A DNA stretch of 64,000 bases from Planotetraspora sp. GP83 (GCF_041262585.1 NZ_JBGCBZ010000002.1:1-64000); one strand, 5' to 3'; numbered from the stretch's first letter, positions 2,729 to 31,629 are shown. The notes: generated by a model from the letters alone, not told the origin. Program-made: numbers and translations.

Positions 2729-2741
2729 CGCAAGCCCGCCG

Positions 2742-12734: not shown

Positions 12735-12758
12735 ACCGCACGCCCCGCGCCGTCCAAT

Positions 12759-12983
12759 TCAGCCCGCGCCCTGCCGTTCCGACCGGATGTGCGCGAGCAC
12801 CGCCAGGACGCGGCGGTGCGAGTCTGGCGAGTCGCGCAACCCCAGCTTGGCGAAGATCTGCGCCACATACGCTTCGACCGCGCACTCGGTGATCGTCAGC
12901 CGGGCCGCGATGGCGCGGTTGGGCAGGCGCTGCAGCCACACCGCGCTGCCGAGCGACAGGAGGATTGCCCCTATCTGCCAAGA
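12759..12983 (-). pseudogene. 5'-truncated remnant of a NarL/LuxR-type response regulator (C-terminal HTH only). The in-frame stop-free stretch reaches 12983.
   Basis: Encodes only ...IGAILLSLGSAVWLQRLPNRAIAARLTITECAVEAYVAQIFAKLGLRDSPDSHRRVLAVL (LuxR HTH). No receiver domain, upstream in-frame stop at 12984-12986, and repeat R1 begins ~70 bp upstream. Confidence 0.55.
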
Positions 12984-13051
12984 TCAACGGTGCTCGCAAG
13001 AGTCGTCAGAACCGCGCAGAACCCGGCTCAGCCTGGTTGCCGTGACCAGCG

Positions 13052-13118
13052 GGAAAAGACAAACCCACAGGTGAGAACCTTATAACCGGTCCGGTTCGAT
13101 TTCACGTCACCCGCTCCA
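13052..13118. repeat. repeat R1: ~65-bp imperfect direct repeat (pairs with 31352-31418) carrying a GGTTCGATT T-loop-like motif
   Basis: gaaaagacAAACCCACAGGTGAGAaccttataaccggtCCGGTTCGATTtcaCGTCACCCGCTCc. ~81% identity to R2. A further short shared block (aacccggc) lies 30 bp upstream in both copies. Confidence 0.6.
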
Positions 13119-13253
13119 CTACCTCAATGACGCTCGGTCATCCCAACGCTCCCATCAGCCGTCCATGGTCGGCCGCCGACGGCTAAGCTCGGTAGCAGAT
13201 GCCTCGGCTCGCTTACCACGTCAGGGCACCTATCAGCGCAAGGAGGTAGCGGC

Positions 13254-13625
13254 ATGACCGCCCAACCGCACGAACTGATCAGCGTTCGGACGCCTGAACA
13301 GATCGTGGAGTCTCTGAAGGCCGATCGGAGTCCGCGTAACATCCGTGCTTGCCTTCCTCCTACCGATCGCGACTACTTCGACAGGGACTACCGGCGGGCC
13401 ATGACCAAGGCCACCGAGGAACTAGACCTCGCGCCTGTCAACACCCTGCTCACTCATTGGTGGCACATGGCCAGGATGAAGGCGACTGGGGAGTACGAAA
13501 CGGTCCTGGAACACGGCGCTCGCATCCAAGAGCAGATCGAACGGGGCGAATACGTCCCGGGGAGACCGCTGCGGGAGGTTATTGCCGAACGAGCATCCGA
13601 ACTCGGCGTGCAACTCGACCTTTAG
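13254..13625 (+). CDS. hypothetical protein; possible antitoxin partner of the downstream RelE/ParE-like gene
   Basis: 123 aa. Stop TAG abuts the ATG of the next gene. RBS AAGGAGG 6 nt upstream. Confidence 0.45.
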   Translation: MTAQPHELISVRTPEQIVESLKADRSPRNIRACLPPTDRDYFDRDYRRAMTKATEELDLAPVNTLLTHWWHMARMKATGEYETVLEHGARIQEQIERGEYVPGRPLREVIAERASELGVQLDL

Positions 13626-13949
13626 ATGTACACGGTTGGCAAGAGCAAGCAGGTAGACGAGCAGATCGCTACCCTTCCCGCCGAAGCGCTCGCAGCGTTC
13701 CACGAGGTGACTGTGTTCCTTCAAGTCGCGCCTTGGAACGGCAACCCCTTCATAGGAGAACGGCCCGACGCCCCGATGCGGACCCAGACGTTCGGTGGTG
13801 GCGGTTCGGGCATGGTTACCTACCTGACGTCGAGTACCGACGCCTGGTGGAGATCATTCAAGTTGCTTGGTACGACTGAGCGCCACAGAAGACAGACGTG
13901 CCCGTTGCGTGCCCGTCCGCTCGGCGATCAGCGATCAGCGGGGACCTAG
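13626..13949 (+). CDS. RelE/ParE-like toxin-fold protein (putative type II TA toxin)
   Basis: MYTVGKSKQVDEQIATLPAEALAAFHEVTVFLQVAPWNGNPFIGERPDAPMRTQTFGGGGSGMVTYL... matches the RelE/ParE pattern of small proteins. Operonic with the upstream small gene. Confidence 0.4.
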   Translation: MYTVGKSKQVDEQIATLPAEALAAFHEVTVFLQVAPWNGNPFIGERPDAPMRTQTFGGGGSGMVTYLTSSTDAWWRSFKLLGTTERHRRQTCPLRARPLGDQRSAGT

Positions 13950-14158
13950 GGCACGGGGGCCGACGCCGTCCGGATCGCAGAGCCATGCGCCGTCTTCCAC
14001 GGAGTGTCCTCCGGCAGGTCGAATTGTGCAAACCACTCCTCCCGGGTTTTGAAGGGAGCGGGGGGAGGCTCGTCGACATACCCCAGTGCCGTCTTCCAGA
14101 ACTGGGCGAGGAGCTGAGCGTTCGTACGGTCAAGGGTCAGATCGATTCTGGCTGCCAT
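13946..14158 (-). CDS. small VOC/glyoxalase-like domain protein (70 aa)
   Basis: MAARIDLTLDRTNAQLLAQFWKTALGYVDEPP... resembles the N-terminal beta-alpha-beta-beta-beta module of glyoxalase/bleomycin-resistance proteins. Short, so uncertain. Confidence 0.3.
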   Translation of the reverse strand: MAARIDLTLDRTNAQLLAQFWKTALGYVDEPPPAPFKTREEWFAQFDLPEDTPWKTAHGSAIRTASAPVP

Positions 14159-14275
14159 GACAGGACCGTACTGCGCGCCTCTGACAGTCGCGGCTGGGCC
14201 GTGTCCTTGAGAAACCACCCCTGGCCGTGGCTGCATCGCCTTGAGCCTTCCGGGCAGGACTTCGGCTGATCGGCC

Positions 14276-14932
14276 TCAACCGCGGGTGCCTGGGCCGGTG
14301 TCGCGGACCAGCAGAGCTGCCTGGACGCGGTTGGAGCAGTCGAGCTTGGCCAGGATCCTGCTTACGTACGTCTTGATGGTCGTTTCGGTCATGCGCAGCC
14401 GCCGGCCGATCTCGGCGTTGGACATGCCCTCGGCCAATAGGTGGAGGACTTCCGACTCGCGGGGCGTGAGCGCCGCCAGCCGCTCGGCCGCTTCCCGCCG
14501 GCGCCGGGCGTCTATGGGCGTGACCATGCCCAGCACCAGCCGGGTCACCTCGGGGGACAGGTAGGCGTCACCGACATGCGCCGCCCGGACCGCGCGGATC
14601 AGTTCGTCGGGCGTACAGTTCTTGAGCACGAACCCGGCCGCGCCGTTCTGCAGCGCGCGCAGCACGTTCGGCTCCGCGCTGAACGAGGTCAGCACCACGA
14701 TCCGCAGCACGGGCACCTGCCTGCGCAGCTCCTCGATCGCGCTCAGCCCGTCCAGCACCGGCATTTTGATATCGATCAGCGCCACGTCGACGCGGTGCCT
14801 GATCGCCTCGTTCACGGCCCCCCGGCCGGTTTCGGCCTGGGCGACGACCTCGATGTCGGCCGCCGATTCCAGCACGGTGCGGATGCCGGCTCTGATCAGC
14901 GGCTCGTCGTCGGCGACCAGAACCCTGATCAC
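14276..14932 (-). CDS. NarL/FixJ-family response regulator (REC + LuxR HTH)
   Basis: MIRVLVADDEPLIRAGIRTVLE...; C-terminal LTPRESEVLHLLAEGMSNAEIGRRLRMTETTIKTYVSRILAKL. Confidence 0.9.
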   Translation of the reverse strand: MIRVLVADDEPLIRAGIRTVLESAADIEVVAQAETGRGAVNEAIRHRVDVALIDIKMPVLDGLSAIEELRRQVPVLRIVVLTSFSAEPNVLRALQNGAAGFVLKNCTPDELIRAVRAAHVGDAYLSPEVTRLVLGMVTPIDARRRREAAERLAALTPRESEVLHLLAEGMSNAEIGRRLRMTETTIKTYVSRILAKLDCSNRVQAALLVRDTGPGTRG

Positions 14933-14933
14933 C

Positions 14934-16174
14934 TCAGCGCACTCCCAGCAGCATGCTCGCGGGCAAGAGTGCGAACATCAACACCGCGGTGGCGAACCCG
15001 ATCACCACCGTACGGATGTGTCCGACCGCGGGCAGGTCATCGTCGTCGGCCGTCTCCCCTGGCGAGCTTACGAGCCGGACTGGAAGCTCTTCGGCGACGG
15101 CGGGCAGCATCGCGACGAGCCGGAACATTCCATCGGAAATGCTGTGATCCAGGACCCCGCCTACCGGTCGTACCCGCTCGCCCAGCCCGGACAGGCCGTG
15201 CCGGGCCCCCTCGGCAGCCGGGAGAACCGGATGGTCTTGGAGCGGATTGGCGACGGTGAGCAGCAGCGTGTCCGGCTCCCACTCGACGCTCACCGTGATC
15301 GGCTGGTCAGGGGCGTGTTTGGCCGCGTTGGTCAGGCCTTCCTCGACCACTCGGTACGCCGCCTGCCCGGCCGCAGGGGACAGCAGCCGCGGCTCTCCGC
15401 GCTGCCGCAGCGTCACTGTCACTCCGGCCGCCTGGAACTCCTCCACCACCGTGCCGATCGCCTCCACTCCAGGCGACCGCCCTGGCGTTTCATCCTCTGC
15501 GCGAAGCACCCCGACCAGCTCGTACAACTCATTCATGGCGCCACGCGCCGCCTTCGCCAGTTGCTCGACGGCCTGCCGCTGCTGCGGCGGCAGCGGCGAC
15601 ACCTCCAGCGCGGCCGCCTGGACTGACACCAGGCTGAGCCGGTGACCGAGGGAATCGTGCATGTCTCGGGCGATCCGCAGCCGCTCACCCAGCCGCTCCT
15701 GCTCGACAAGGAGCTCCCGCTGGCGGCGGAGCTGCCGGTTGTGCTGATCGAGTGCCGACACCAGCCGCTCATGCTGGGCGAGGTATCGGCCGGCCAGCAG
15801 CGGCAGCGCCACGAACACGACGTACGTCGAGACAATGCGGGGAATCGCCTGCGGCTCCGCCGACTCGGTCACGAACTGTACGCCGAGGCCGCCCAGCGCC
15901 GCGCCGACGACCATGGCTGTGTCCGACCGCGACAGGACAGCATGACCGGCCTGGTAGGCGGCCCAGAGCAGCAGGACAAACGACCCACCGGTCAGCGAGG
16001 CGAGCACCAGCGCGGCGACGAACGCAGCCATGGGTGTCCGGTGTCCCAGCGCGATCACCATCGCGACAGCCAGCGCGTAGATCGGTACGCCCCAGAGGGG
16101 CAGACCACCCGGGTGCCCGGCCATGAGCGCGGTGTCCGCGACAACCACGACAGCGACGAGAAGGTGTCGGGTCA
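14934..16174 (-). CDS. sensor histidine kinase (HisKA_3/DesK-type, 4-5 TM helices) paired with the response regulator
   Basis: Start at ATG (rc cat 16172-16174): MTRHLLVAVVVV... H-box ARDMHDSLGHRLSL. HATPase_c motifs. Stop overlaps the response-regulator start region. The 643-aa ORF-track version is an upstream extension. Confidence 0.85.
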
Positions 16175-16268
16175 TGGTCACCAGGCTACTGCTCGGCCGC
16201 CGCGTCAACTTTGGTCGGCGCAGACCGGCGACTTTCGAGGACTGCCCGCGGCCGGCCCGGCTCCTACG

Positions 16269-17192
16269 GTGAGCCAGGTGATCGAAGTGCGGAACCTCAG
16301 CAAGAGATACGGGAAAGCTGTCGCGGTCGACGAGCTGTCCTTCACGGTGCGGCCCGGCCAGGTAACCGGGTTCCTCGGGCCGAACGGGGCCGGCAAGTCC
16401 ACCACGATGCGAATGATGCTGGACCTCGACCGCCCCACCGGAGGTCAGGTCCTCATCGACGGCAGGCATTACCGGCGGCTGCCCGAGCCGCTGCGGCACG
16501 TCGGCGCCCTGCTGGAGGCCAAGGCTGTGCACGGCGGCCGCAGCGCGTACCACCATCTGCTGTGGCTGGCCCAGAGCAACCGGATCCCCAAGGCGCGGGT
16601 GCGGCAGGTCCTCGCGCTGGTCGGACTGGAGCACGCCGCCAGGAAACGGGCCGGGACCTTTTCCCTCGGCATGGCCCAGCGGCTCGGCATCGCCGCGGCA
16701 CTGCTCGGAGACCCACCGGTGCTTCTTCTGGACGAACCGGTCAACGGGCTCGACCCCGAAGGCATCCTTTGGATCCGGAACCTGATGAAGGGATTGGCCG
16801 CGGAGGGCCGCACAGTGTTCGTCTCCAGCCACCTGATGAGCGAGACGGCGCTCGCCGCGGAGCACCTCATTGTGATCGGCCGCGGCCGGCTGCTCGCCGA
16901 CACCAGCGTGCGGGAGTTCATCCAGGAAAACGCACGCTCGTATGTACGGATCCGTACGCCCGAGCCGGAGCGGATGCGCGACGCCCTAACCGGGGCCGGC
17001 ATCAGAGTGAAGCAGACAGCCGATGGCGCGCTGGAGGCATACGAGACGGAGGCCGCGAAGATCGGCGAACTCGTCGCCGCCAACAGCCTGACGGTGCACG
17101 AGGTCAGCACCCAGTCGGCTTCGCTGGAGGAGGCGTTCATGCGGCTTACCAGCGACGCCGTGGAGTATCGGGCCGGAGGTCTGCAGCAGTGA
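16269..17192 (+). CDS. ABC transporter ATP-binding protein
   Basis: GTG start. Walker A GPNGAGKST, signature LSLGMAQRL, Walker B LLLDEP. Confidence 0.85.
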   Translation: MSQVIEVRNLSKRYGKAVAVDELSFTVRPGQVTGFLGPNGAGKSTTMRMMLDLDRPTGGQVLIDGRHYRRLPEPLRHVGALLEAKAVHGGRSAYHHLLWLAQSNRIPKARVRQVLALVGLEHAARKRAGTFSLGMAQRLGIAAALLGDPPVLLLDEPVNGLDPEGILWIRNLMKGLAAEGRTVFVSSHLMSETALAAEHLIVIGRGRLLADTSVREFIQENARSYVRIRTPEPERMRDALTGAGIRVKQTADGALEAYETEAAKIGELVAANSLTVHEVSTQSASLEEAFMRLTSDAVEYRAGGLQQ

Positions 17193-17977
17193 GCAGAACC
17201 TCCCCACGAGCGGTCCTCACCGCCGAATGGACCAAGATCCGGACTGTGCGGTCGACGGTGTGGACGCTGCTGCCGACGTTGGTCCTCAGCGTGGGCCTCG
17301 GCTTCCTGGTCGGGCTCAGCTTCCGTAACGGCTTCTCCCACATGTCCCGCGAGCAGCAGGAGACCTTCGACCCGCTCTTCGCCACCTTCTACAGCCTCAC
17401 CCTCGGCCAGCTTGCCCTGGTGGTGTTCGGGGTGCTCGTCATGAGCAGCGAATACAGCTCCGGGTCGATCCGCGCCTCGCTCGCGGCGGTGCCGCGGCGC
17501 GGCCTGTTCTACGGCTGCAAGCTGCTCGCGGCGACATTGCCGGTTCTCGGCGTCTCGCTGGTCACCGTGCTGGCCACCTTCTACACGGCACAGGCGGCGC
17601 TTGGCCCACACCGCACCCCGCCTGGCTCGGACGGTGCACCCCAAGCCATTGTGGGGGCCTGCCTCTACCTGACACTCATCTCCCTGTTCGCCACGGGTGT
17701 GGCGGCAATGTCGCGCAGCTCGGTGCGCTCGCTCGCGATCCTGCTCCCGCTGCTCTTCCTTGGCTCACAAGGGCTCGGCAACGTCCCGAAGGTGAAGACC
17801 GTCGCGCAGTACCTGCCGGACCAGGCCGGCATGGTGATCATGCATCTTGCCGGCCCGCCGGGTGACCCGCGCTTCGCCCGCCCCTACGGCCCGTGGACCG
17901 GACTGGGTATCGTCGCGCTCTGGACCGCCGCCTCGCTTATCGGCGGCTACCTGGTCCTGCGCCGCCGCGACGCTTGA
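17189..17977 (+). CDS. ABC-2 family transporter permease (6 TM helices)
   Basis: GTG start overlaps the ATPase stop in a GTGA coupling motif. Hydrophobic ABC-2 type-like protein. Confidence 0.8.
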   Translation: MSRTSPRAVLTAEWTKIRTVRSTVWTLLPTLVLSVGLGFLVGLSFRNGFSHMSREQQETFDPLFATFYSLTLGQLALVVFGVLVMSSEYSSGSIRASLAAVPRRGLFYGCKLLAATLPVLGVSLVTVLATFYTAQAALGPHRTPPGSDGAPQAIVGACLYLTLISLFATGVAAMSRSSVRSLAILLPLLFLGSQGLGNVPKVKTVAQYLPDQAGMVIMHLAGPPGDPRFARPYGPWTGLGIVALWTAASLIGGYLVLRRRDA

Positions 17978-18095
17978 ACGGTCGCGACAGGTGCCGCCGC
18001 GACGGAGGGGGCAGCGCCCCTCGGCCGGGTGCCGGTCAGCCCCCGGCGAGGTGGAGGCCACACCTGTCGGGCCTCCACCTGCTTCTCCGGGCTGA

Positions 18096-18716
18096 TCACT
18101 CGAGCGTGCCTGGACCGTTCTCCTCGATATGGCCGTCGGCCAGGCGGCCGACGCGGGAGAACGGCGCGCGCCACATCGGATACATGACCGGACCGTCGGG
18201 CAGCCGGACCAACTCCGGCATGTCTACGTAGCCGTGCCGGAGATAGAGCCGGCGGCTCGCCTCACTGCTGGCCTCCAGGTAGGCCGGCATCCCCTGGGCG
18301 TCGAGCCGCCGGTGGTGCTCCTCCAGCAGCAGACTGCCGAGGCCACGCCCGGTCTTCCCCCGTACCAGAGCGATGAATGCCAGGTAGTGGTGCGGCTCGG
18401 TCGGGTGGAGCTTGTCCATCTGCCGGCCGAGGGTGTCGTACCTATCGGCGTATTTCCCGGCGAAGGAGGCGATCGCCTCCTCCTCGCCCGGGATCTCCGG
18501 GAACGGCGCGGTGAACCAGACCGCGACCCCGGCGAGCTCGCCTGACTCGTGGATCCCGTAGACGTCGCCGTGGTCGAGCGCGTGCGCGACGTACATGGTG
18601 AAGAACCGCAGCTGGATCGGCGGCCGATCCTGCGCCGGAGGGATGAGCCAAGTGCTGATCGCGTCGGAGCCGAACGTGTCGGCGATGACCGCGCCGGCCA
18701 CGGCGGCGTCCGTCAT
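18096..18716 (-). CDS. GNAT-family N-acetyltransferase
   Basis: Start at ATG (rc cat 18714-18716): MTDAAVAGAV... Acetyl-CoA-binding motif RGKTGRGLGSLLL. Confidence 0.75.
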   Translation of the reverse strand: MTDAAVAGAVIADTFGSDAISTWLIPPAQDRPPIQLRFFTMYVAHALDHGDVYGIHESGELAGVAVWFTAPFPEIPGEEEAIASFAGKYADRYDTLGRQMDKLHPTEPHHYLAFIALVRGKTGRGLGSLLLEEHHRRLDAQGMPAYLEASSEASRRLYLRHGYVDMPELVRLPDGPVMYPMWRAPFSRVGRLADGHIEENGPGTLE

Positions 18717-18733
18717 CCGGGTGATCTCAGCCG

Positions 18734-20206
18734 TCACTTTGAGCCTCCCGTGACGGCCTGCGCGCCGAAGCCGATGTTGGCGTACACCTCCGGCCTGGTC
18801 GCCTTCAGCACACGAGCCCACACGACGCCGAAGACGATCGCGACGACGAAGATGCCGGGCAGGATCCAGCGAAGGACCGAGTCGGGCGCGACCCCCAGGA
18901 CCGTGTCGAAGTTGATCAGCGTCAGTCCGATGATCACACATAGCGCCAGGGCCGCCAGGGCCGGGGCGACGCGTGTCCGCCACGCCGTCTCCCCCGAGGG
19001 GTTCTTGGAGAAGAACACGATCACCGCGATCGAGGTGACGGCGAGCAGGGCCAGCAGCCCGAGGCCACCGAACGCGCCGAAAGTGAAGAACAGTTTCGTG
19101 ACCGGATCGAGGCCGGTGATCGCGTAGACGGCGATCACAATCAGCCCGAGCGCCGTCTGCAGCAACGATCCGGCCACCGGAGCGGCGGTGCGGGCCGAGG
19201 TGCGCCCGAACACCGGGGGAAGCACGTTTTCACGGCCCAGGGCGAAGATGTAGCGGGCCGTGGTGTTGTGGAAGGCGATCATGCAGGCGATGCTGCTGGT
19301 CACGAACAGCACGGAGCCGATCGCCGCGACGGTGGAGCCCAGATGGGCGGCCGCCTGGTTGAAGACGAGCACGGGCCCCTGTTCGGACGCCGCCTTGACG
19401 ATTCCGTCCGGCCCGGTCGGCACCGTCTGGGCCCAGGCGGAGATCGCGTACAGGACCGCGATGATCGCGATGCCCAGGTAGGTGGCGACGGGGACGGTCC
19501 TGTCGCGGTCCCTGGACTCCTCGGCGAAGACCACCGACGACTCGAATCCGGCGAACCCCGCGACGACAGTGGCGAGCGCGGCGCCCACACCGGGCACGAA
19601 CAGCGAGCCCGGGGTGAAGCCCTCGAAGTTGACGCCGCTCGGGGCGGCGTGGAACAGGTCACCGATGTCGAACACCAGGACGACGGTGATCTCGCTGACC
19701 AGCAGGACAGAGAGGACCTTGCCGTTGACGTCCACCCGCAGCAGGCCGAGCAGGCCGGTCAGCGCCCACGCCGCCAGCGCGATCACCCACCACGCGGGCG
19801 AGGCGTCGAACCAGTCGCGGAGCAGCGGCTCGGCCGCCGACCCGATGATTCCGTAGAGGCCAAGCTGCAGCGCGTTGTAGGCCAGCAGTGCCACCCACGC
19901 GGTCACCACCCCCTGCGTCCGGCCGAGCCCTTGGGCGGCATAGGCGTAGAACGCGCCCGCGTTCACGACGTGCCTGGCCATCGTCACGTATCCGACAGCG
20001 AAAAGCGCGAAGATCGCGCCCAGCATCAGGAACGCGAACGGCACACCGATGACGCCCGTCACCGCGTACGCCGTCGGGACCGAACCCGCGACGACCATCA
20101 GCGGCGCCGCCGCGGAGATGACGAAGAACACGACCGATGGGATGCCGAGCCGATCGTTGGCCAGCGCGCCGGACACGGCGCTGGGTCGTTGCTCTGTGAG
20201 GGACAT
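18734..20206 (-). CDS. APC-superfamily amino acid permease
   Basis: 490 aa with 12-13 predicted TM segments and APC-like composition. Confidence 0.8.
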   Translation of the reverse strand: MSLTEQRPSAVSGALANDRLGIPSVVFFVISAAAPLMVVAGSVPTAYAVTGVIGVPFAFLMLGAIFALFAVGYVTMARHVVNAGAFYAYAAQGLGRTQGVVTAWVALLAYNALQLGLYGIIGSAAEPLLRDWFDASPAWWVIALAAWALTGLLGLLRVDVNGKVLSVLLVSEITVVLVFDIGDLFHAAPSGVNFEGFTPGSLFVPGVGAALATVVAGFAGFESSVVFAEESRDRDRTVPVATYLGIAIIAVLYAISAWAQTVPTGPDGIVKAASEQGPVLVFNQAAAHLGSTVAAIGSVLFVTSSIACMIAFHNTTARYIFALGRENVLPPVFGRTSARTAAPVAGSLLQTALGLIVIAVYAITGLDPVTKLFFTFGAFGGLGLLALLAVTSIAVIVFFSKNPSGETAWRTRVAPALAALALCVIIGLTLINFDTVLGVAPDSVLRWILPGIFVVAIVFGVVWARVLKATRPEVYANIGFGAQAVTGGSK

Positions 20207-20805
20207 CCGGAAACTCCGTTAGATGGGGGGTGGGGGTCGCCAACGGTTGATCACACGGCTTCGCCGACGGCGACCTCGGTCTGAACGATGAGTCTCTGCA
20301 GCGGTACGGGGAAGCATGGCGATCGTGGCGGCCGCGAACGCGGGATCGCGCTCCCGCAGAGCCCGCTGGGCACCGCCGGTGGCGACGACAAGCCCGACGA
20401 GAGCCCAACGACGAGCCCGTGGAGGACGCGGTCACCGGCCCCGGGCGGCCTGCCCCGCTGGACGGCGAGGGTTAGGCGGGCGAGCGGCCACGCGGCCGTG
20501 TTGGCATTCACGGGGGCCGCGGGCTTGAAAGATCACCTTTAGGCACGAACCGCGATGATATAGGCGAATTGTTCAATCTGTCATCGATGAAAAAGTTTCG
20601 GATCGTCCGAGAAACAGTCCGCCCTCAATCCCCCAATGGCCGGATATATGCTGAGATGTTATCCTTCCGACCTAATGCGGACAGCGACCAGCGCGGAAAT
20701 CACGGCTCATGGTCACTCGGCCGGCGTATATCCGGCTGCGCGAGTCTCCATGCGTGACCCGCTTCCCACCGGCGCCGATAGCGCGCGGTCGGGGGCGGAA
20801 GACGA

Positions 20806-21231
20806 TTACTTCGGCAGCACGCCGATTTGCTGCAGTACGGCGAGCACGTCGTAATAGTCCGTCTGCCGCCTGATCAGGCCGTCTTCGGTGAACTCCATGA
20901 GGCTCAGCCCGCGGTTGTCGATGCGGCTGCCTCTGGCGGCGCTTTCCGGCAGGTGCGGGAAGTTGCCCAGCAGGGTTCCCGTCCCGTTCCAGGGCACGGC
21001 TGCCCGGCGGTCCGCGATGACGGCCTCGCCCATCTCGACATGGGTGTCCGGACACGCCTCGACCCATATCCGCATGAAGTCCGCCAGCTCCTTGCGTCCC
21101 TTGAAGGTCCGCCGAAGGGCGATGTCCTCGAAGACGGCGTCCTCGGTGTAGCACTCCGCCCAGCGCTCGGCGTCGTAGCTGTTGAAGGTGGCGAACCACT
21201 TCTCGATCGTGTCGGCCGGATCGTTCGTCAT
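20806..21231 (-). CDS. SnoaL-like / NTF2-fold protein (polyketide-cyclase-like or ketosteroid-isomerase-like)
   Basis: 141 aa. MTNDPADTIEKWFATFNSYDAERWAECYTEDAVFEDI... is a typical SnoaL_2 N-terminus. Confidence 0.65.
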   Translation of the reverse strand: MTNDPADTIEKWFATFNSYDAERWAECYTEDAVFEDIALRRTFKGRKELADFMRIWVEACPDTHVEMGEAVIADRRAAVPWNGTGTLLGNFPHLPESAARGSRIDNRGLSLMEFTEDGLIRRQTDYYDVLAVLQQIGVLPK

Positions 21232-21640
21232 CGCCTTGCCTTCTTTCCGGTGAGGGGCTTTCGCTGAGCCGAGCCGTACAGGGCTGGGGGAAACGGGCGA
21301 TCAGGGGCCTACCATTCGCGATCGATCAGGAGAGCCGAGAGCTCCTCGAGATCCTCACGCGCGCCCCCGGCGACGGAAGAAGCTGCCAACGACCTGGTTG
21401 GCCTCGAGAAACATCTCCTCGATGGCGTCTCCCCGTGATCCGACATCAGCTCCGAACAGCGATCGGATGTCGCCTGGTGGGCGGCTCTCGGCCGCACGCC
21501 GAAAGAATTGGCCGGCGGGTGCCGGTGGACTTCGCGGATGAGCCGCGGCACAACGCGATCCGCGTCATTCACGCGGAGATTTTCTACAAATGGCTTGGCA
21601 CGGCTGCGGGGAGGGCAGTGGTCTCACGGCCGGCGGCTCG

Positions 21641-24600: not shown

Positions 24601-26707
24601 TCTGGCCGAGCACGGCGAACTCGGCGGCGAAGCCGGCCCTTCCTTCGGCCGCGAGCAGCTCCCCGCGTTTCGCCGCGAGAGTGGCCCGGGCCCGGTTGAT
24701 CCCGCCGAGCACCTCCCCGATCCGTTCCAGAATCGCGGTGCGCACGGTGACGTCGGTGATCTCCAGGGTGCCGACGACCTCGGTCAGGATCGCCAGCCCC
24801 TCGCCCTGCTCCACCAGCCGCTCCGAGATCGGCGCGGACTCCGCGACGGTCCTGATGGCCTGGGCGTCCGAGGTGAGCCGTTCCACGTCGGCGTGGTAGC
24901 CGGTGAACGCGTCGTCACGCTGGAGGAACGCGACAGCGCGCTGCGCGGCCGCGGCGAGCTCGGTCTCGAGGTGGCCGGCCAGCGCGTCGACCCGCTCGGT
25001 GTCGATGTAGCGCAGCTCCCGCAACGTCGCGAGGCGTCCCTGCGCACGCCGCAGCTCAGCGAGCTGCCGCACCCACGCGTCAGACGTCATGGGCGACTCG
25101 CCGCGCGCCTGCCGTACCAGCGACTCGATCCGCGCGGCGGCCTCGTCCAGCTCGGACGCCGCCTGGCGGGTGAGCGACTGGACCTTCTCGAACTCGTCCA
25201 GCACCTGCTCGGCGGTCGCCCTGACGTCGGCGAGCGGCGAGCGGAGATCGTGGTCGTTCAGCCAGTGGTAGTGGTCGAAAGCCCGGACGCATGCCGCGAT
25301 CAGCGCCTCGAAGACCGGCACCGACGGCGCCATCTCCTCGACCATGCGGACGACGGACAGGCAGTCCGAGACCCCGCGCACCAGCTCGGCGTTGCCGATG
25401 CGCTCCAGCGGCCCGGCGCCCACCGGCTGGGCCGCGGCGAAGGTGTCCGAGACGTACGGCGTCTGCCATACCTGCATGGGATGGACGCGGGTCGGCTCGT
25501 CACCGGTCGCCCGGAACACCACGAGGGTTCCGTCGTCGAACAGCGAGTAGCCGTGGCACGGGATCGGGTTGGCGACCTCCTTGCGGATCACGTTGTACGG
25601 CAGCAGCAGCGTCCGGCCCTCCGCCCTCGCGTGGAAGACGTAGAGCACGTCCTCCCCGTTGGGTGAGCGGATGACGCGCTCGAACTCCAGGCTGGCGACG
25701 TCCGTGTCGAAGGTCTTCGCCGTACCGGTGGCGAGGTAGTAGCCACCGGGGAAGATGATGCCCTGGTCTTCGGGTAGCCGCTGGCAGGCCTGTCCGATGC
25801 CGTCCAGCCGGACCACGCCTCTGGTCCTGGTGTTGAACACCAGGTGCCGCCACTCGGCCTCGTTGTAGGGCCGGATGCGGAGCAGGATCAGCGGACCGAC
25901 CCTGGCATAGTGGACGTCCGCGTCCGCCAGGCTCTGCAGCGGCTCGACGACGGGCTCACGGTAGATCCCCTCACCGGTCTCGGTGTTGTTCTCGACCTTG
26001 ACGGTGAGGTCGCCGCCCACGGTCTCGACGAACACCTCGTCGCCGATCGAGATGTGCGGGTGACGGCCGAGGACGTGGTCGTCCCTGGTGGTCGCCGTCC
26101 ACTCGAAGTCGTGCGACGGCGGGAAGACGTGGTCACGCTCGCCCCGGTTGTCCAGGTAGCTGACGGAGCCATCGGTTCCGACGCTCCATCGCAGCACTCG
26201 GATGTCCTGCGGGCCGGTCTGGAAGACGGCCAGCAGCCGGCCTTCCAGCCGGCGCAGCTGCGTCAGCCGGGTTTCCTTGTAGTACCGGTACAGTTCGCCG
26301 AAGTCCCGCTCGAACTGCTGGTCGTCGAGCAGCAGGGGGGCGTCGTCGAACCGGAAGGCGTCGCCGTCGCGGATGAAACGGTGACACGAGAACACGTCCC
26401 GGACGGTCGTCTCGGACTTCAGCCCGATGAACACGTTGTAGCCGAACAGCATGACCCCGCCCACCGACACGATGTCGCGGGGCACGCAGTTGTTCTCGGT
26501 GCGGATGCGCTCGGTGCCGACCAGCCGGAGCTCGGCGCCGCCGAAGACCTCCAGGCGCCGGGCGTTGAGCGCCTCGGCCCGGCGGGCGAGCTCCTTGGCC
26601 TGCTCGGACAGCCGGGACCGGAGCACCTCATAGGTGCCCGCGTCGAGCCCCGCCCGCGTCTCGATGAGCTGTGTCTCGGTGAGCTGTGTCTCGATGGCCT
26701 CTGTCAC
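21641..26707 (-). CDS. giant (1688 aa) protein with a C-terminal MoxR/AAA_5-type ATPase domain and a long uncharacterised, coiled-coil-rich N-terminal region
   Basis: GTG start 7 nt after the flotillin stop. Walker A LLLISPPGYGKTTL, Walker B NNVLLYLDDIQH, then a MoxR-like sensor region RTRTYDLRGKRFAVCMAGNP. I did not recognise any domain in the first ~1150 residues. Confidence 0.85.
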   Translation of the reverse strand: MTEAIETQLTETQLIETRAGLDAGTYEVLRSRLSEQAKELARRAEALNARRLEVFGGAELRLVGTERIRTENNCVPRDIVSVGGVMLFGYNVFIGLKSETTVRDVFSCHRFIRDGDAFRFDDAPLLLDDQQFERDFGELYRYYKETRLTQLRRLEGRLLAVFQTGPQDIRVLRWSVGTDGSVSYLDNRGERDHVFPPSHDFEWTATTRDDHVLGRHPHISIGDEVFVETVGGDLTVKVENNTETGEGIYREPVVEPLQSLADADVHYARVGPLILLRIRPYNEAEWRHLVFNTRTRGVVRLDGIGQACQRLPEDQGIIFPGGYYLATGTAKTFDTDVASLEFERVIRSPNGEDVLYVFHARAEGRTLLLPYNVIRKEVANPIPCHGYSLFDDGTLVVFRATGDEPTRVHPMQVWQTPYVSDTFAAAQPVGAGPLERIGNAELVRGVSDCLSVVRMVEEMAPSVPVFEALIAACVRAFDHYHWLNDHDLRSPLADVRATAEQVLDEFEKVQSLTRQAASELDEAAARIESLVRQARGESPMTSDAWVRQLAELRRAQGRLATLRELRYIDTERVDALAGHLETELAAAAQRAVAFLQRDDAFTGYHADVERLTSDAQAIRTVAESAPISERLVEQGEGLAILTEVVGTLEITDVTVRTAILERIGEVLGGINRARATLAAKRGELLAAEGRAGFAAEFAVLGQTITGALAVADTPEHCDEQLGRLLLQLENLGSRFGEFDDLVARLEQKREDVYEAFSSRKQALLDERARRADRLAVSADRILSSVRRRVVSLESIEEVNTYFASDPMVAKLRTVADELRSLGDQVRAEELEGRIKSARLDAGRALRDRVDLYSDAGTTIRLGRHRFAVNTQPLDLTLVPLDGRMAFAITGTDYRSPVDEESFEATRPFWDQLLVSESADVYRAEHLAASILAEAEAGGLAGADAVSGAGLSLDALHAAALADGGLLGVVRRVAETRYDEGYERGVHDQDAAAILDALLRLHTGAGLLRFPPEARAAAQLFWTFGTAEAARRAWTTRARSLARARGAFGHGAEVARLSQPRMDAIGEIRAELASAMAGFLRDAGLPGGETGLAGEYLFEELSSSPSGFVTSAAARGILGRFRAALGGSLKEFEDDLRALDDDPDAAGVPGVPGALGVRYQLAEAWLAAFLRTSFLRESGEQNAEAGAVQAGDLAEAIAVQLCDVPRYDSSAALTTTVERLLGAHPRLSGRSLGLRLDETLTRTRRFRTERVPAYRAYQRRRNELIERERARLRLGEYQPKVMSAFVRNRLLDEVYLPLIGDNLAKQLGAAGEAKRTDQMGLLLLISPPGYGKTTLMEYVASRLGLVFVKVNGPSLGHAITSLDPAQAPDATARQEIEKVSFALECGNNVLLYLDDIQHTSPELLQKFISMCDAQRRMEGVWNGRTRTYDLRGKRFAVCMAGNPYTESGGRFRIPDMLANRADVWNLGDVLSGKEELFALSYIENALTSNPVLAPLSTRDRADVELLVRLARGDSGVRADQLSHPYSRVELDQILAVLDKLLRVQEVVLAINEAYIASAAQSDASRTEPPFQLQGSYRNMNKLAERIAPVMNDGELHAVIDDHYLGEAQTLASGAEANLLKLAELRGTMTADQARRWAEVKSGYLRSKALGGDGDDPVSRAVGAIGLLADRVGGVEKAIERAALPDGSAH

Positions 26708-26714
26708 GGGCGCG

Positions 26715-28790
26715 TCAGTGCTTCCCGGAGTTGAGTGCCGCGACCGGCTGCTCGGCCACGCCCAGCCGCTGCGCGGCGCTCAGCAGATCCTGCAGCTTGC
26801 CGGCGTCGGGGCCACCCGCCTTGATCAGCTTCACGAGCAGGGCGGACAGCGTGAGATTCCGCACGTCCGCCGTGTCCAGCGAGCCGAGCATCCGGGAGAG
26901 GTCCTGCGGAAGGCTTAAGGTCCCGTCGAGGTACGGCGTGGCGAGCGCCCGTGCCACGCTCGAATTCTCGACGAAGCCGTCCACGCTCTTGCCCATCGTG
27001 ATCGAGCTCATGAGCCGGTCGAAGAAGATGCTCTCGCCGCCGACGATATCGATGTCGGCCTTCTCCAGTCCCGCCGCCAGCACGGTCGCCTGCGCCTGCG
27101 CGACGTCCCGCTGGACGTCGATGCTCTTGAGACGGATCTCCTTCTCCGCGTCCAGCCGGAGCCGGTACTCCTCGTGCCCGCGGCTCGCCTCGTCCAGCGC
27201 GGCCAGCGCCGCGGCCTTCTGGGTGAGGCCTTCCGCCTCGGCCTTGAGCTTCTCGCCCACAGCCGCCGCGGCGGCCAGCGCCATCGCCTGCTCACCCTCG
27301 GCTTCCGCCTTGAGCTTCTCACCCATGGCCAGCGCGGCGGCGAGGGCCTTCTCCCGCTCGACGGTGGCCTCCGCGCGTCCCATCTTCTCGACGGCTTCGG
27401 CGTCGCGCTCGCGCACCTGGACCTCGGCGAGCCCGACCGCGGCCGCCTCCGCCTGGAGACCCTCCGCGAGGCGGATCTTCGCCCGGCTGTCGAGCTCGGC
27501 CGCCTGCTGGCGGGCCTCGGCGAGGACGAGCTCCTCACGGGCCTTGTACTTCGCGGCCTGCTCGGCGGCCTCGGCGGCCTTGATGTCCTTGACCAGGTTC
27601 TCCTGCGCCACGGCCTCGGCCTGGATCACCAGCGCCTGTCGCGTCCGCTCCGCCTCCTCGACGACACGCAGGCGCTTGATGTTCTCCTCCTGCTCTGCGA
27701 CCGTCTTGTCCACCGCGATCCGCTCGCGCGTCACCTCGGCGATCGCCCGCTTCTCGACCTCGAGTTCCTTGTCCTTGGCGATTCGCGACAGCTCGGTCTC
27801 GCGCTCCCGGGCGATTACCTCGAGCATGCGGTCCTTCTCGATCCGCTCGCTCTCGATCGCGATGACACGCTCGCGGTTCTTCTCCGCGACGGCGATCTCC
27901 CTCGCCCGGTTCTCGTGCTGGATGCCGAGTTGCTCGTCGGTGCGGATGTTCGCGGCCTGGGCCTTCAGCCGCTCCTCGGCCTGGACCCTGGCGGTCTCGG
28001 CCTCCTCGCGCGCCTTCATGGTCTCGATCTCGCGCCTCTGCTTGGTCTCCGCGTCGGCCTGCCGTCGCTCCAGCTCCAGGATGGCCTCCCGCGCGTCGAC
28101 ATTCTGGCGGGTGATCTCCTTCTGCTCGTTGCGCTGATACTCGTTGGTCCGGATGTGCTCTATCGCGGTCAGCTCAGTGATCTTGCGAATGCCCTGCGCG
28201 TCGAGGATGTTGGCCGGGTCGAGCTGCGCCATGGGCGTCTGCTCGAGGAAGTCGATGGCGGCGTCCTCGAGGCTGTAGCCGTTCAGGTCGGTGCCGATCA
28301 CCCGGACGATCTGGTCGCGGAACTCGTCGCGCTTCGTGTAGAGGTCGACGAAGTCGAGTTGCTTGCCGACCGTCTTGAGCGCCTCGGAGAACTTGGCGTT
28401 GAACAGCACCTGCAGCGTCGACTCGTCGCTGGCCCGGGCGGTGCCGATCGCCTGGGCCACCTTGATGACGTCTTCGACGGTCTTGTTGACCCGCACGAAG
28501 AACGTGATGCGTATGTCGGCCCGGATGTTGTCCCGGCAGATCAGCCCCTCCTGGCCGGTCCGGGTGATCTCGATCGTCTTCACCGAGATGTCCATCACCT
28601 CGGCCTTGTGCAGCACGGGCAGGACGATGGCGCCGGTGAACGTCACGTCGACGTTCCTGACCTTGGAGACGATCAGGGCCTTACCCTGCTCGACCTTGTG
28701 AAACAGCCGGGTCACGGCGAACACGAGACCGATGACGACGAGAAGGAGAACGGCGAGAAGAACGCCCATCCCCGTGGTGATGACATCCAT
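26715..28790 (-). CDS. flotillin-family protein (SPFH/band-7 domain + long Ala/Glu-rich coiled-coil repeats)
   Basis: N-terminal TM helix then SPFH core (EQGKALIVSKVRNVDVTFTGAIVLPVLHKAEVMDISVKTIEI...). Central EA-repeat region with internal duplicated units (GEKLKAEAEG x2). Confidence 0.85.
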   Translation of the reverse strand: MDVITTGMGVLLAVLLLVVIGLVFAVTRLFHKVEQGKALIVSKVRNVDVTFTGAIVLPVLHKAEVMDISVKTIEITRTGQEGLICRDNIRADIRITFFVRVNKTVEDVIKVAQAIGTARASDESTLQVLFNAKFSEALKTVGKQLDFVDLYTKRDEFRDQIVRVIGTDLNGYSLEDAAIDFLEQTPMAQLDPANILDAQGIRKITELTAIEHIRTNEYQRNEQKEITRQNVDAREAILELERRQADAETKQRREIETMKAREEAETARVQAEERLKAQAANIRTDEQLGIQHENRAREIAVAEKNRERVIAIESERIEKDRMLEVIARERETELSRIAKDKELEVEKRAIAEVTRERIAVDKTVAEQEENIKRLRVVEEAERTRQALVIQAEAVAQENLVKDIKAAEAAEQAAKYKAREELVLAEARQQAAELDSRAKIRLAEGLQAEAAAVGLAEVQVRERDAEAVEKMGRAEATVEREKALAAALAMGEKLKAEAEGEQAMALAAAAAVGEKLKAEAEGLTQKAAALAALDEASRGHEEYRLRLDAEKEIRLKSIDVQRDVAQAQATVLAAGLEKADIDIVGGESIFFDRLMSSITMGKSVDGFVENSSVARALATPYLDGTLSLPQDLSRMLGSLDTADVRNLTLSALLVKLIKAGGPDAGKLQDLLSAAQRLGVAEQPVAALNSGKH

Positions 28791-28802
28791 CCAAGTCCCC
28801 TG

Positions 28803-29429
28803 TCAGTGGAGGTCGTAGGGCATGACCCAGAAGAACTCGCCCTCTGGGTCGTAGTCGAAGATGAGGGCGGAGCTGCCGGCGCGGAGATCGTCGGCTCCCG
28901 TCTGGCGCACCTGGACGAGGGCCGAGGAGCCGTCCTCCGCCGTGACCTCGGCCTGGCCGAAATCGGGTCCGACCCGTCCAGTACGGATGACGCACATGCG
29001 GCCGACGAAGTCGCTCCGCGACGGCGCGGGCACGGCCGGGAACAGCGCGCGGATCGGCAGCACCAACAGGCGGGTGCACAGCCAGCCGGCGAGAAGCGCG
29101 ACCAGAAGGACAGCGGTCCGTGCGGCCGTCCCCTCCACCAGCGCCGCGCCGGCGAGGCTGACGAACCAGGAGATCACCACCATGAGCGAGATCACGACGC
29201 TGGCCGGCACTCCGCGCAGCCCGATGCCGGTCAGGAGATCGTCGGGCAACTCCAACCCCAGGCCCCCCAGCGGCACGAGCAGCCAGTAGCCGATGACGAC
29301 CAGCAGCATGAAGCTGAACAGGACCGCCGGGAACCCGAGCGCCGCGCCCACGAAATCCCGCATTGACTCCCACCGTTTTGCGAGCGTCTCCCCCGAGACG
29401 TAACGCATTATTGCCCGATAGCCAGGCAA
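28803..29429 (-). CDS. NfeD-like membrane protein (TM helices + C-terminal OB-fold), the usual operon partner of SPFH proteins. Alternative ATG start at 29408.
   Basis: 3-4 TM helices followed by a soluble beta-rich tail ...GRMCVIRTGRVGPDFGQAEVTAEDGSSALVQVRQ.... 12-nt gap to the flotillin gene. Confidence 0.7.
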   Translation of the reverse strand: MPGYRAIMRYVSGETLAKRWESMRDFVGAALGFPAVLFSFMLLVVIGYWLLVPLGGLGLELPDDLLTGIGLRGVPASVVISLMVVISWFVSLAGAALVEGTAARTAVLLVALLAGWLCTRLLVLPIRALFPAVPAPSRSDFVGRMCVIRTGRVGPDFGQAEVTAEDGSSALVQVRQTGADDLRAGSSALIFDYDPEGEFFWVMPYDLH

Positions 29430-29485
29430 TTGTCAGCATCTATTTCGCTTGGAATAGTGGGCACTTTTCGCCGTTTTCGCGCGTT

Positions 29486-29507
29486 GTTACCGACGCCCAT
29501 AGGTAAC
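29486..29507. promoter_or_regulatory. perfect inverted repeat GTTACC-N10-GGTAAC in the promoter region of the NfeD-flotillin-ATPase operon; candidate operator
   Basis: Seen directly, ~55-80 bp upstream of the operon's first start codon. Confidence 0.3.
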
Positions 29508-29606
29508 ACAGCAGAAGACAGGCCGCGGCTGCCGGCCCGCGAACACCACCGCAGGGACGCGTTGCCGTCTGCTCGCCCGGCGAGCTGGGACTTGTCGCCC
29601 GGCGAG

Positions 29607-30419
29607 CTAGGACTTGCGGGCTACGGCCCCGTACAACGATGCCTCGGCCAACGGGACGGGCTCGATTTCGGGGTAGTCCGGACGCCAGGCGGAGACGGGA
29701 ACCACGCCCGGATCAACGAGGTCGAGCCCATCGAAGAAGCTCTCGACCTCCCCGAGACCGCGGATCCGAAGATCGATGCCGGCCCTGGTGTAGATCTGGC
29801 TGCCGGTCTCGGATTGGCCGGGGGGCAGATGGTCGCCCGTCCCATGGGACAGGGCAAGGTAGCTACCTGGCGGAACGGCGTCGATCAACTGGTTGACGAT
29901 CGCGTACGGCTGATCCTGGTCTGGGATGAAATGGAGAATCGCGAACAGCAACACGGCGATCGGTTGCGAGAAGTCCAGTGCGCTCATCCGCTTGTCGGAC
30001 AAGATCTCGCCGGGGTCGCGCAGGTCGGCATCGATGTAATCGACGACTCCGTCCGCGGTGGTCAACAGTGCCCGAGCGTGAGTGAGCACGATCGGGTCGT
30101 TGTCCACGTAGATCACGCGCACATCCGGGTCGATACGTTGAGCGACCTGGTGGGTGTTGTTCGCCGTGGGGATCCCCGTACCGATATCTATGAACTGCCT
30201 GATCCCGGCCTCTGCCGCCAGATAGCGGATAACACGCCCGAGGAAGGCTCGATTCTCCCGGGCCGTGGTCCGCATTGCCGGAAAGTTGGCCAGGACCTTC
30301 TCGGCGGCTTCGCGATCGGACGCGAAATTGTCCTTTCCGCCGAGATAGTAGTCGTACATCCGGGCCGAGCTCGGGATGGTCGGATCGATGACGATCGGAT
30401 CCCGATCCCAGGCAGCCAT
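29607..30419 (-). CDS. SAM-dependent methyltransferase of the DUF574 (AdoMet_MTase, PF04672/Methyltransf_19) family
   Basis: Start ATG (rc cat 30417-30419): MAAWDRDPIVIDPTIPSSARMYDYYLGGKDNFASDRE... is the hallmark N-terminus of this actinobacterial family. DIGTGIP SAM motif. Confidence 0.75.
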   Translation of the reverse strand: MAAWDRDPIVIDPTIPSSARMYDYYLGGKDNFASDREAAEKVLANFPAMRTTARENRAFLGRVIRYLAAEAGIRQFIDIGTGIPTANNTHQVAQRIDPDVRVIYVDNDPIVLTHARALLTTADGVVDYIDADLRDPGEILSDKRMSALDFSQPIAVLLFAILHFIPDQDQPYAIVNQLIDAVPPGSYLALSHGTGDHLPPGQSETGSQIYTRAGIDLRIRGLGEVESFFDGLDLVDPGVVPVSAWRPDYPEIEPVPLAEASLYGAVARKS

Positions 30420-30449
30420 TCCCGCATCCTTCCGTCTGTATAAGCACAC

Positions 30450-30848
30450 TGTAGATCATCTGGGTGTTCCCATTCGCCGGGGGCGCTTCCCCGCCAAGCC
30501 GCTGACGCTCGCGTTCTGCGCGCTGACCCGCCAGGTGGCCGCCACGCCGCGGCCATGCGCATGGAGTCATGACGAGTGAGTCTTGGACGGCGCGCGCCCC
30601 CGATCTCATCGTGGTGAGCGGTACGCCGAGCGCTCTGCCGGAAGGGTGACAGACATCCCGGCCCGCACGCGCGGACGACCACGTCATCTGCGCGGTCGTC
30701 TTCACGGTTGCCACGGGATCAAGCCAGTCGAAGGCAGCAGGAGCGGCCCCTCCAACTCTTCGAGCAGTCGCACACATGAGGCATGGTGCTTGTCATCCCG
30801 ATCGACAACAGCGATCAATGGACCCGTGTCCAGGAGCGTGGCGGTCAC
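30450..30848 (-). pseudogene. vapC: vapC-like PIN-domain toxin gene, disrupted (frameshift/premature stop after ~48 codons)
   Basis: GTG at rc 30846-30848 overlaps the VapB stop (GTGA). It encodes VTATLLDTGPLIAVVDRDDKHHASCVRLLEELEGPLLLPSTGLIPWQP*, a canonical PIN N-terminus. PIN-like residues continue in another frame (..DWLDPVATVKTTAQM..). Confidence 0.5.
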
Positions 30849-31108
30849 GTTGACCGATTGAACCGCTCCGCCAGCAGATCTTCGACCCGTTCCGACAGAT
30901 CCCCCTGACCGGAGGCACCAATCCCCGCGATCGACAACCGCCGACGGCGAACGGGCTCAGACGGTTCAGCTGATGCCGCCTCAGCCAAGTCAGGGTCCGT
31001 CTTCACCAAACGCAGGAGACGACGCGCCTGGTCCGGTGACAGCCGGTCCACCAGGTGGTGAAGCTCCTCATGCGCATGCCCGGCGCTCATAGCAACGAGT
31101 CTACGCAA
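30845..31108 (-). CDS. vapB: VapB-like type II antitoxin (small DNA-binding protein)
   Basis: 87 aa: MSAGHAHEELHHLVDRLSPDQARRLLRLV..., acidic C-terminus. Stop overlaps the GTG of the PIN gene. Confidence 0.5.
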   Translation of the reverse strand: MRRLVAMSAGHAHEELHHLVDRLSPDQARRLLRLVKTDPDLAEAASAEPSEPVRRRRLSIAGIGASGQGDLSERVEDLLAERFNRST

Positions 31109-31406
31109 GCGACATCGCCTGCGTCAGTGACTGCAGCGCCGGGTTCACCCTGTGGGCGCCGTAGTCGGGGCTGGCCGCCGGATGCTCGCAGAACAGGTAG
31201 GGCGCCACAAGCCAGGAGACCGTGGGCAGGGTGCCGTCCTTGCAGTGCTGGTCGAAGGCGGTCAGATCCCACTTCGTCATCACGTTGACGTACCGCGGGT
31301 CGTCCTTGGCGAAGGCGTGGAACCCGGCATAACCCCATGGGTCACGAACTGCCGAAACAGCAAACCCACAGGTGAGAGTCCTGTTACTGGCCCGGTTCGA
31401 TTCCCG
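31101..31406 (-). pseudogene. internal fragment of a phosphoesterase-family (phospholipase C / acid phosphatase, PF04185) gene; no start codon, reads into repeat R2
   Basis: Stop-to-stop frame encodes ...DPWGYAGFHAFAKDDPRYVNVMTKWDLTAFDQHCKDGTLPTVSWLVAPYLFCEHPAASPDYGAHRVNPALQ. The LPxVSW..P...EHP block is the conserved phosphoesterase motif. Confidence 0.45.
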
Positions 31407-31418
31407 TCACCCGCTCGC
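31352..31418. repeat. repeat R2, partner of R1 (13052-13118)
   Basis: gaaacagcAAACCCACAGGTGAGAgtcctgttactggcCCGGTTCGATTcccGTCACCCGCTCg. Confidence 0.6.
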
Positions 31419-31486
31419 AACCTCTTCCGGGGAACCGCTCGCTCCGAAAGGCGGGGCGGGCGGCGCGGCGCGGCGGTGATGGGTGA

Positions 31487-31629
31487 TCACCGGCGCAGCA
31501 GGAGCCGCAGCACCCGCAGGGCCCGGGCCCGGCGGTCGGGCTTGGCCGAGAACAGGTAGACGACCGCGGGGGTGGCCACCAGGAGCGCGCCGATGGTGCC
31601 GAGGTCCGCCAGCTGGGTGAGGATGGTCA
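31487..31629 (-). CDS. small (47 aa) single-TM protein with an Arg-rich C-terminus; hypothetical
   Basis: ATG preceded by AAGGGA 8 nt upstream. MTILTQLADLGTIGALLVATPAVVYLFSAKPDRRARALRVLRLLLRR. Confidence 0.3.

Follow-up and report, generated by a model that had tools for sequence, protein, structure and literature searches.

Two repeats ending in tRNA-Gly(CCC) 3' fragments flank an 18.2-kb segment of Planotetraspora sp. GP83, probably as relics of an old integrated element

We analyzed a stretch of 64,000 nucleotides from Planotetraspora sp. GP83 (GCF_041262585.1, NZ_JBGCBZ010000002.1:1-64000; hereafter the window), in which two direct repeats enclose an 18.2-kb interior. An earlier note on this DNA, made from the sequence alone, had singled out positions 12759–31418 as a segment bounded by repeats with a tRNA T-loop-like motif, and had read it as an old integrated element or as two insertion scars. 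Each repeat consists of a non-tRNA portion, here called the arm, followed on its 3' side by a portion derived from a tRNA gene:

13044–13125, plus strand: left repeat copy (MAFFT alignment and in-window blastn)
~13053–13092, plus strand: element arm of the left copy, containing the conserved 17-mer CAAACCCACAGGTGAGA
13093–13118, plus strand: damaged tRNA-Gly(CCC) 3' fragment of the left copy (T-loop, T-stem 3' strand, acceptor 3' strand and CCA)
31346–31424, plus strand: right repeat copy (MAFFT alignment and in-window blastn)
~31354–31393, plus strand: element arm of the right copy, common to the left copy
31394–31416, plus strand: intact tRNA-Gly(CCC) 3' fragment of the right copy, 23 nt, GGTTCGATTCCCGTCACCCGCTC (local alignment)

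The pair described earlier indeed exists, and its two members do share one orientation. Over 82 columns of the MAFFT alignment their identity is 78%, interrupted by small indels; in-window blastn pairs them with E=5e-12. The identity first given as about 81% for elements of some 65 bp amounts to 54 of 69 columns (78%) when exactly those elements are aligned locally; a repeat finder returned an ungapped 49-nt core (13053–13101 versus 31354–31402) that is 80% identical. The unit is about 80 nt long, and in-window searches, blastn included, found two copies and no third in the 64 kb.

The sequence noted as T-loop-like belongs to a genuine tRNA 3' end, that of tRNA-Gly(CCC), and reaches from the T-loop through the acceptor strand. 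In local alignments, the right fragment matches tRNA-Gly(CCC) positions ~50–72 at 23 of 23 nucleotides and is followed by GCA in place of CCA, while the left fragment matches positions ~50–74 at 24 of 26 nucleotides, CCA included, its damage consisting of a 1-nt insertion and one mismatch, both in the T-stem 3' strand. In both copies identity to the tRNA begins at G52/G53, just before the T-loop TTCGATT. A chance match to the fragment 25-mer did not occur in 100 shuffles of the window. The 74-nt tRNA-Gly(CCC) sequence itself is unchanged across Nonomuraea gerenzanensis, Planomonospora corallina and four Streptosporangium genomes.

The arm, about 45 nt on the 5' side of the tRNA piece, is common to both copies (GAAAmAGmCAAACCCACAGGTGAGA...) and does not align locally to tRNA-Gly(CCC). 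When the right copy was compared by blastn with phage and plasmid records, only its last ~28 nt were matched, by annotated tRNA-Gly genes of Streptomyces phages, an unannotated Gordonia phage site, ~255 Mycobacterium phage records and three chromosomal sites in Nonomuraea gerenzanensis, the best of which is the tRNA-Gly(CCC) gene. A 22-nt blastn match of the arm in a Rhodococcus plasmid lies inside a coding sequence and was judged to be due to chance. Similarity between the two copies covers ~45 nt of arm and ends directly after the tRNA piece; the sequences 3' of the tRNA end are unrelated. An arm, a tRNA core and a differing 3' flank together form the pattern expected of an attR-type attachment-site junction.

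The tRNA-Gly(CCC) gene is a habitual landing site in Streptosporangiaceae, as the dcd-tRNA-Gly(CCC) locus is occupied by a pSAM2-type element in six of the six genomes of this family examined: Nonomuraea gerenzanensis (locus L092), Planomonospora and four Streptosporangium assemblies that share one Dcd sequence and are named S. canum (the latter five jointly L094–L098). In five of the six (L094–L098), these integrative conjugative elements of actinomycetes (AICEs) carry full-length Int and Xis(HTH_17), RepSA, an FtsK-like Tra and GntR; they extend over about positions 1–9850 of the respective loci. The N. gerenzanensis element has RepSA, an FtsK-like protein, a GntR regulator and an HTH_17 excisionase-like protein, with an integrase fragment only. 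Its tRNA-Gly(CCC) gene adjoins dcd, and two partial tRNA copies in the same orientation lie 10.7 and 12.3 kb downstream (L092 14980–15024 and 16578–16622), each preceded by one common non-tRNA arm. This pair is a direct counterpart of the pattern in the window. Within L092 4244–16622, a 1.6-kb second unit is bounded by the duplicate attR, and the integrase fragment lies just beyond. The PLSDB record in question, NZ_LT559118.1, is labelled "plasmid I", yet it is 11.85 Mb long, carries dcd and tRNA-Gly(CCC) and has almost no annotation, which suggests that it is the N. gerenzanensis chromosome.

The window pair thus resembles the sites of pSAM2-type AICEs in its target tRNA, its 23-nt 3' core, the bacterial family and the layout of two fragments behind one arm. 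However, tRNA identity at the pSAM2-type sites spans ~45 nt and starts at the anticodon loop, whereas in the window copies it spans 23–26 nt and starts at the T-loop; and the relatives have kept RepSA and Tra (with full Int-Xis in L094–L098), none of which is found in the window. A tRNA identity that starts only at GGTTCG, with the 23-mer GGTTCGATTCCCGTCACCCGCTC, is seen at attachment sites in IMG/VR contigs (L099/L106/L110 and L143). Actinophage attP sites on tRNA-Gly, as in Phistory and the L5-like mycobacteriophages, likewise use the tRNA-Gly 3' sequence as their attachment core; in Gordonia phage Phistory, the tRNA-Gly 3' segment sits in an unannotated gap ~940 bp from a tyrosine integrase gene. 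In contrast to the window copies, these sites lie beside the integrase gene in a phage genome and their identity block reaches the anticodon loop, and the window has no phage genes.

When an element with a tyrosine integrase targets a tRNA gene, its attP holds a copy of the tRNA 3' end; recombination restores the tRNA at attL, and at attR the old tRNA 3' end is preceded by the P arm, the element lying 5' of that fragment (PMC2440964, PMC4383910, PMC9897764). In the Islander collection, no class of attP site is more frequent than that of the T-stem region (1836 of 3919 islands), and 125 tandem arrays are recorded (PMC4383910); tRNA fragments at attR sites have been called pervasive (PMC9897764). 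The window repeats share with Islander-type attR fragments a 3' fragment that starts at the T-arm, here at the T-stem/loop sublocation recognized for such islands, as well as uniform orientation (fragments of the same tRNA, both on the plus strand), an arm on the 5' side and an island-sized spacing. They differ in that an intact cognate tRNA or tmRNA gene at one end is missing from the 64 kb and an integrase from the interior, and in that both fragments are orphans, the left one with indel damage.

A further close counterpart is offered by cis-mobilizable elements (CIMEs), decayed elements that keep their attachment sites, have no int or tra and are described as products of tandem accretion (PMC5704250). 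Here too, att-like direct repeats flank a segment free of integration, excision and transfer genes, which carries accessory cargo and, at its ends, what may be addiction modules. The two att copies of the window are, however, only 78% identical, the left core carries an indel, and neither a partner element nor a tRNA is visible in the window; moreover, it was in Firmicutes that CIMEs were defined, and a single Streptomyces case is cited.

Gene fragments and small cassettes lie beside both repeats:

12759–12983, minus strand: LuxR/GerE helix-turn-helix-only fragment without a receiver domain (GerE profile positions 16–52 of 57)
13254–13625, plus strand: DUF6247 protein (profile match)
13626–13949, plus strand: 107-aa partner open reading frame (ORF) of the DUF6247 gene, without family match
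30705–30854, minus strand: stop-interrupted remnant (...LLDTGPLIAVVDRDD...) that resembles PIN domains by eye only
30848–31090, minus strand: putative antitoxin ORF, its peptide read by eye, without profile match
31104–31343, minus strand: internal fragment of a PF04185 phosphoesterase/phospholipase C (profile positions ~202–275 of 356)

The earlier note had placed each repeat directly 5' of a truncated minus-strand gene remnant. Both fragments are real, and the PF04185 piece (peptide DPWGY...), which is cut at both ends, does abut, with its upstream break, the right repeat at 31346; the LuxR/GerE piece, in contrast, is separated from the left repeat by ~60 nt and makes no contact with it. The start of the latter coincides with the end, at 12752, of homology between an adjacent LAL-abhydrolase block and Planotetraspora phitsanulokensis, and its 39% identity to the helix-turn-helix of the neighboring response regulator indicates that it is not a recent local duplicate. 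The PF04185 region is annotated in the source record as a 59-aa "phospholipase C" (P0121), and this annotation was the only match in a homologue search with the fragment. Six-frame Pfam scans of 12740–14300 and 30400–32000 revealed neither a receiver half nor another PF04185 piece. Because the fragments sit on the arm side rather than at the crossover, and because the complementary halves are absent at the opposite junction, they look like debris of deletion or rearrangement and not like disrupted target genes; the alternative of insertion scars in resident genes is not supported.

At 13254–13949, where a toxin-antitoxin-like pair had been proposed, the DUF6247 profile match stands, but the label "RelE/ParE-like" finds no backing in Pfam, NCBIfam, PADLOC or PHROGs. 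The 107-aa partner has no match in these four collections either; against the PDB it gave two matches only, above E=0.06 and to unrelated chains, and its single-sequence AlphaFold model (predicted local distance difference test score, 34) was not used. The two-gene cassette is possibly a toxin-antitoxin pair. The names VapB and decayed VapC given to the pair at the right end were not borne out, as the 30848–31090 ORF is supported by none of Pfam, NCBIfam, PADLOC, PHROGs and PDB sequences and the PIN-like remnant has no profile support.

In the interior between the repeats, ORF calls and Pfam searches gave the following larger features:

13126–31345: interior between the repeats, 18.2 kb
14276–14932, minus strand: response regulator (Pfam)
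18734–20206, minus strand: amino-acid permease (Pfam)
21641–29429, minus strand: operon for a DUF3686 ATPase, a flotillin-like protein and a membrane protein (DUF3686 by Pfam)
29607–30449, minus strand: Methyltransf_19 gene (Pfam)

Further interior genes encode a VOC-like ORF, a HisKA_3 kinase, an ABC ATPase, a GNAT protein and a SnoaL protein. Of the interior cargo, Pfam confirmed the response regulator, HisKA_3 kinase, ABC ATPase, GNAT, permease, SnoaL, DUF3686 ATPase and Methyltransf_19, while the flotillin-like ORF and the adjacent 208-aa ORF have no Pfam match. At 14934–17192 the longest ORFs overlap on opposite strands, a 643-aa HisKA_3 kinase on the minus strand against a 516-aa ABC ATPase on the plus strand; where the domains lie implies that the kinase is shorter (~14934–16200) and that the ABC gene starts near 16250, the mechanical ORF calls over-extending both. 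In the 80 genomes that matched best, which belong to Streptosporangiaceae, Micromonosporaceae and Pseudonocardiaceae apart from one Streptomyces, the three operon products (DUF3686 "DNA repair" ATPase, 1688 aa; flotillin-like protein, 691 aa; membrane protein, 208 aa) are conserved as a unit with 74–90% amino acid identity, each time in different surroundings.

Given the tRNA origin of the fragments and the heavy use of tRNA-Gly(CCC) as an integration target in the family, with its 3' ends at both repeats, an old integrated element, the first of the two readings offered in the earlier note, is the best reading of the locus. With a probability of about 0.6, the repeats are decayed attachment-site relics of tRNA-Gly-targeting elements and the interior is plausibly a single such element, decayed, non-autonomous and CIME-like. 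According to this model, an element with a tyrosine integrase (an AICE, another genomic island or a prophage) would have recombined with the tRNA gene in the T-loop region, providing a new tRNA 3' end at one junction and leaving the old 3' end as an orphan at the other, 3' of the element. Each repeat in the window would then be an attR-type junction, with ~45 nt of element arm followed by a displaced tRNA-Gly(CCC) 3' end, and the presence of two fragments in the same orientation behind one arm may reflect successive, tandem integration of related elements. The 18.2 kb to the left of the right fragment would represent the remainder of what was once a single element, which would have lost its integrase, excisionase, replication and transfer genes and would since have been remodelled as genes were gained and lost; deletion of what else belonged to the element arms may have left the LuxR and phosphoesterase pieces as debris. 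Such a relic is almost certainly immobile now.

Several findings weigh against this model. ARAGORN detects no tRNA or tmRNA gene in the 64-kb window, in agreement with the earlier note, so that an intact tRNA-Gly is lacking; a cognate tRNA to the left would lie more than 13 kb away, past a type III polyketide synthase cluster. Integrase, Xis, RepSA and Tra are missing from the called ORFs (among the ORFs scanned, none matches Phage_integrase, HTH_17, RepSA or FtsK_SpoIIIE in Pfam), six-frame Pfam searches within 1.5 kb of each repeat gave no remnants of them, and tblastn of phage proteins and of AICE proteins from L092/L095, four tyrosine integrases included, against the whole window yielded noise only (best E=0.047 for the AICE proteins); that no integrase is visible had also been noticed before, and the Int-Xis-Rep(RepSA)-Tra(FtsK-like)-Kor(GntR) module that defines AICEs is accordingly not present. 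No transposase was found in the called ORFs of the window or in the six-frame scans. In composition the interior is ordinary (GC 0.679 versus 0.691; tetranucleotide r = 0.983 against a control range of 0.979–0.993). It is also a mosaic, as only 21665–29487 is common to the nearest genera (Planotetraspora kaengkrachanensis and Microtetraspora). Exact-pattern searches for relatives of the arm found none in 185,579 GTDB species-representative genomes or in IMG/VR, and the arm's similarity to that of the N. gerenzanensis AICE is not significant.

An interior like the rest of the window, without mobility genes and without a tRNA anchor for the array, would fit att relics that delimit no unit, with ordinary patchwork chromosomal-arm DNA making up the intervening 18 kb; the relics would then mark two separate events or have arrived by rearrangement or deletion, and their bounding of a segment would be coincidental. 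Interior blocks do differ in history, the 21665–29487 operon being 80–87% identical in nucleotide sequence to P. kaengkrachanensis and Microtetraspora in different surroundings with unshared flanks, and block boundaries elsewhere in the window are equally sharp, such as the LAL block end at 12752. Nevertheless, uniform orientation, a common arm and an 18-kb spacing within the range of islands are what tandem integration predicts, the N. gerenzanensis pair is an example of such pairs arising in situ, and the GC content dips just inside both repeats (0.62 at 13–14 kb and 0.64–0.66 at 28–31 kb, versus 0.75 and 0.73 outside). We regard relics without a unit as unlikely, though far from negligible.

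That the ~80-nt unit is itself a dispersed small repeat with a tRNA-derived part, of the miniature inverted-repeat transposable element (MITE), repetitive extragenic palindromic (REP) or short interspersed nuclear element type, spreading by itself and associated with deletions, is very improbable. Such a repeat would suit a short unit with sharp ends, both copies of which lie beside truncated genes, and a weak arm-like match at 56847–56877 (6.5 bits) might pass for a third copy; this score, however, is reached by 8 of 60 composition-preserving shuffles and so is due to chance, leaving two copies in 64 kb where REP or MITE families show many. Neither terminal inverted repeats nor a conserved hairpin is present, and the predicted RNA folds, for either strand, do not outperform those of shuffles (z −0.69 to +0.95). 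Outside the window, nhmmer found no copy of the unit in 89 related loci or in the dcd/tRNA-Gly loci L090 and L092, the exact-pattern searches found none, and seven pattern matches in Joint Genome Institute metagenomes are unrelated chance matches. The sharp 5' limit of the similarity can be explained by a break in one copy alone, and such a break is visible where the phosphoesterase fragment abuts the right copy. There is likewise but a faint chance that the repeat unit is the working site of an undescribed T-loop-targeting Streptosporangiaceae integrase or a self-spreading tRNA-Gly mini-element, with the 18.2 kb still mobilizable in trans by an integrase whose gene lies elsewhere in the Planotetraspora genome; mobilization of the segment is unlikely because the left core is damaged. 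Least of all do we expect the unit to be a working RNA gene, tRNA-like or regulatory, such as a minihelix that imitates the tRNA-Gly acceptor/T arm. In the left copy, AGCGGG (13048–13053) can pair with the CCCGCT before CCA to give a unit of roughly tRNA length, and the right copy can form a 5-bp/7-nt hairpin (ACAGG-TGAGAGT-CCTGT), but each helix is absent from the other copy, alignment and folding show no compensatory changes, and the T-stem 5' strand is unpaired in both. No cloverleaf is recognized by ARAGORN, Rfam returns no tRNA or other RNA family in gathering mode or at E<=10 on 300-nt slices, and promoter and terminator scans at both repeats found no promoter-like or terminator-like sites beside the units.

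Orphan attR-type tRNA fragments and CIME-like relics are already common and understood, and the integrated-element reading adds another decayed instance, of little weight beyond annotation. It would mean that orphan tRNA-Gly(CCC) 3' fragments persist as markers of old integration in a Planotetraspora region that no longer looks mobile. As a much-used landing site in Streptosporangiaceae, tRNA-Gly(CCC) helps to delimit islands near biosynthetic clusters and can guide the choice of integrase/att pairs for genetic tools in actinomycetes that are hard to engineer; if the arm belonged to a live integrase system, a T-loop-type tRNA-Gly integrase would be added to that toolbox.

A motif, CCCAGGTCAG(A/G), recurs beside the tRNA-Gly att cores of unrelated elements, at these offsets from the core:

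L094–L098: +36/37
L115/L118/L120/L125/L145: +23, −106, −137, −197
L132: −43, +33
L133: −51, +39
The window: CCCAGGTCAG-like sites at 13068 and 31369

On the 3' side of L132, the motif, as read from the sequence, forms the first half of a hairpin after the tRNA. The arm 17-mer CAAACCCACAGGTGAGA is akin to the motif (15 of 17 to L132), with p = 0.003 when taken once, which is not significant after ~100 comparisons.

The whole 64 kb looks accessory, with the type III polyketide synthase cluster, SARP and LAL regulators, WD40 and NB-ARC proteins, transporters and oxidoreductases. Synteny was compared via the flotillin gene (80 loci), the LAL regulator and dcd; only single gene blocks are common, and the repeat junctions are not conserved. 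No homology of the window to the dcd/tRNA-Gly loci was found, and comparison of the flank DNA with plasmids was uninformative. The block of the LAL regulator and an alpha/beta hydrolase (9267–12752) is 92% identical in nucleotide sequence to P. phitsanulokensis, and the exact stop of this homology at 12752 suggests a horizontally shuffled two-gene module; its proteins have 85–92% identical homologues in Streptosporangium, Acrocarpospora and Micromonospora. To its left, a small biosynthetic cluster (185–8204) comprises the type III polyketide synthase (4749–5846, minus strand), two O-methyltransferases, two SARP/BTAD regulators, a MarR regulator and a BBE-type FAD oxidase. Immediately beyond the right repeat, a 47-aa hydrophobic ORF (MTILTQLADLGTIGALLVATPAVVYLF..., 31490–31630, minus strand) is the only plausible coding part of a 214-aa ORF at 31487–32131. 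Another gene encodes a WD40-repeat protein (31990–33420, plus strand) with an N-terminal non-WD40 region, and contains six copies of a 129-nt-periodic repeat that are 61–89% identical to the reference copy.

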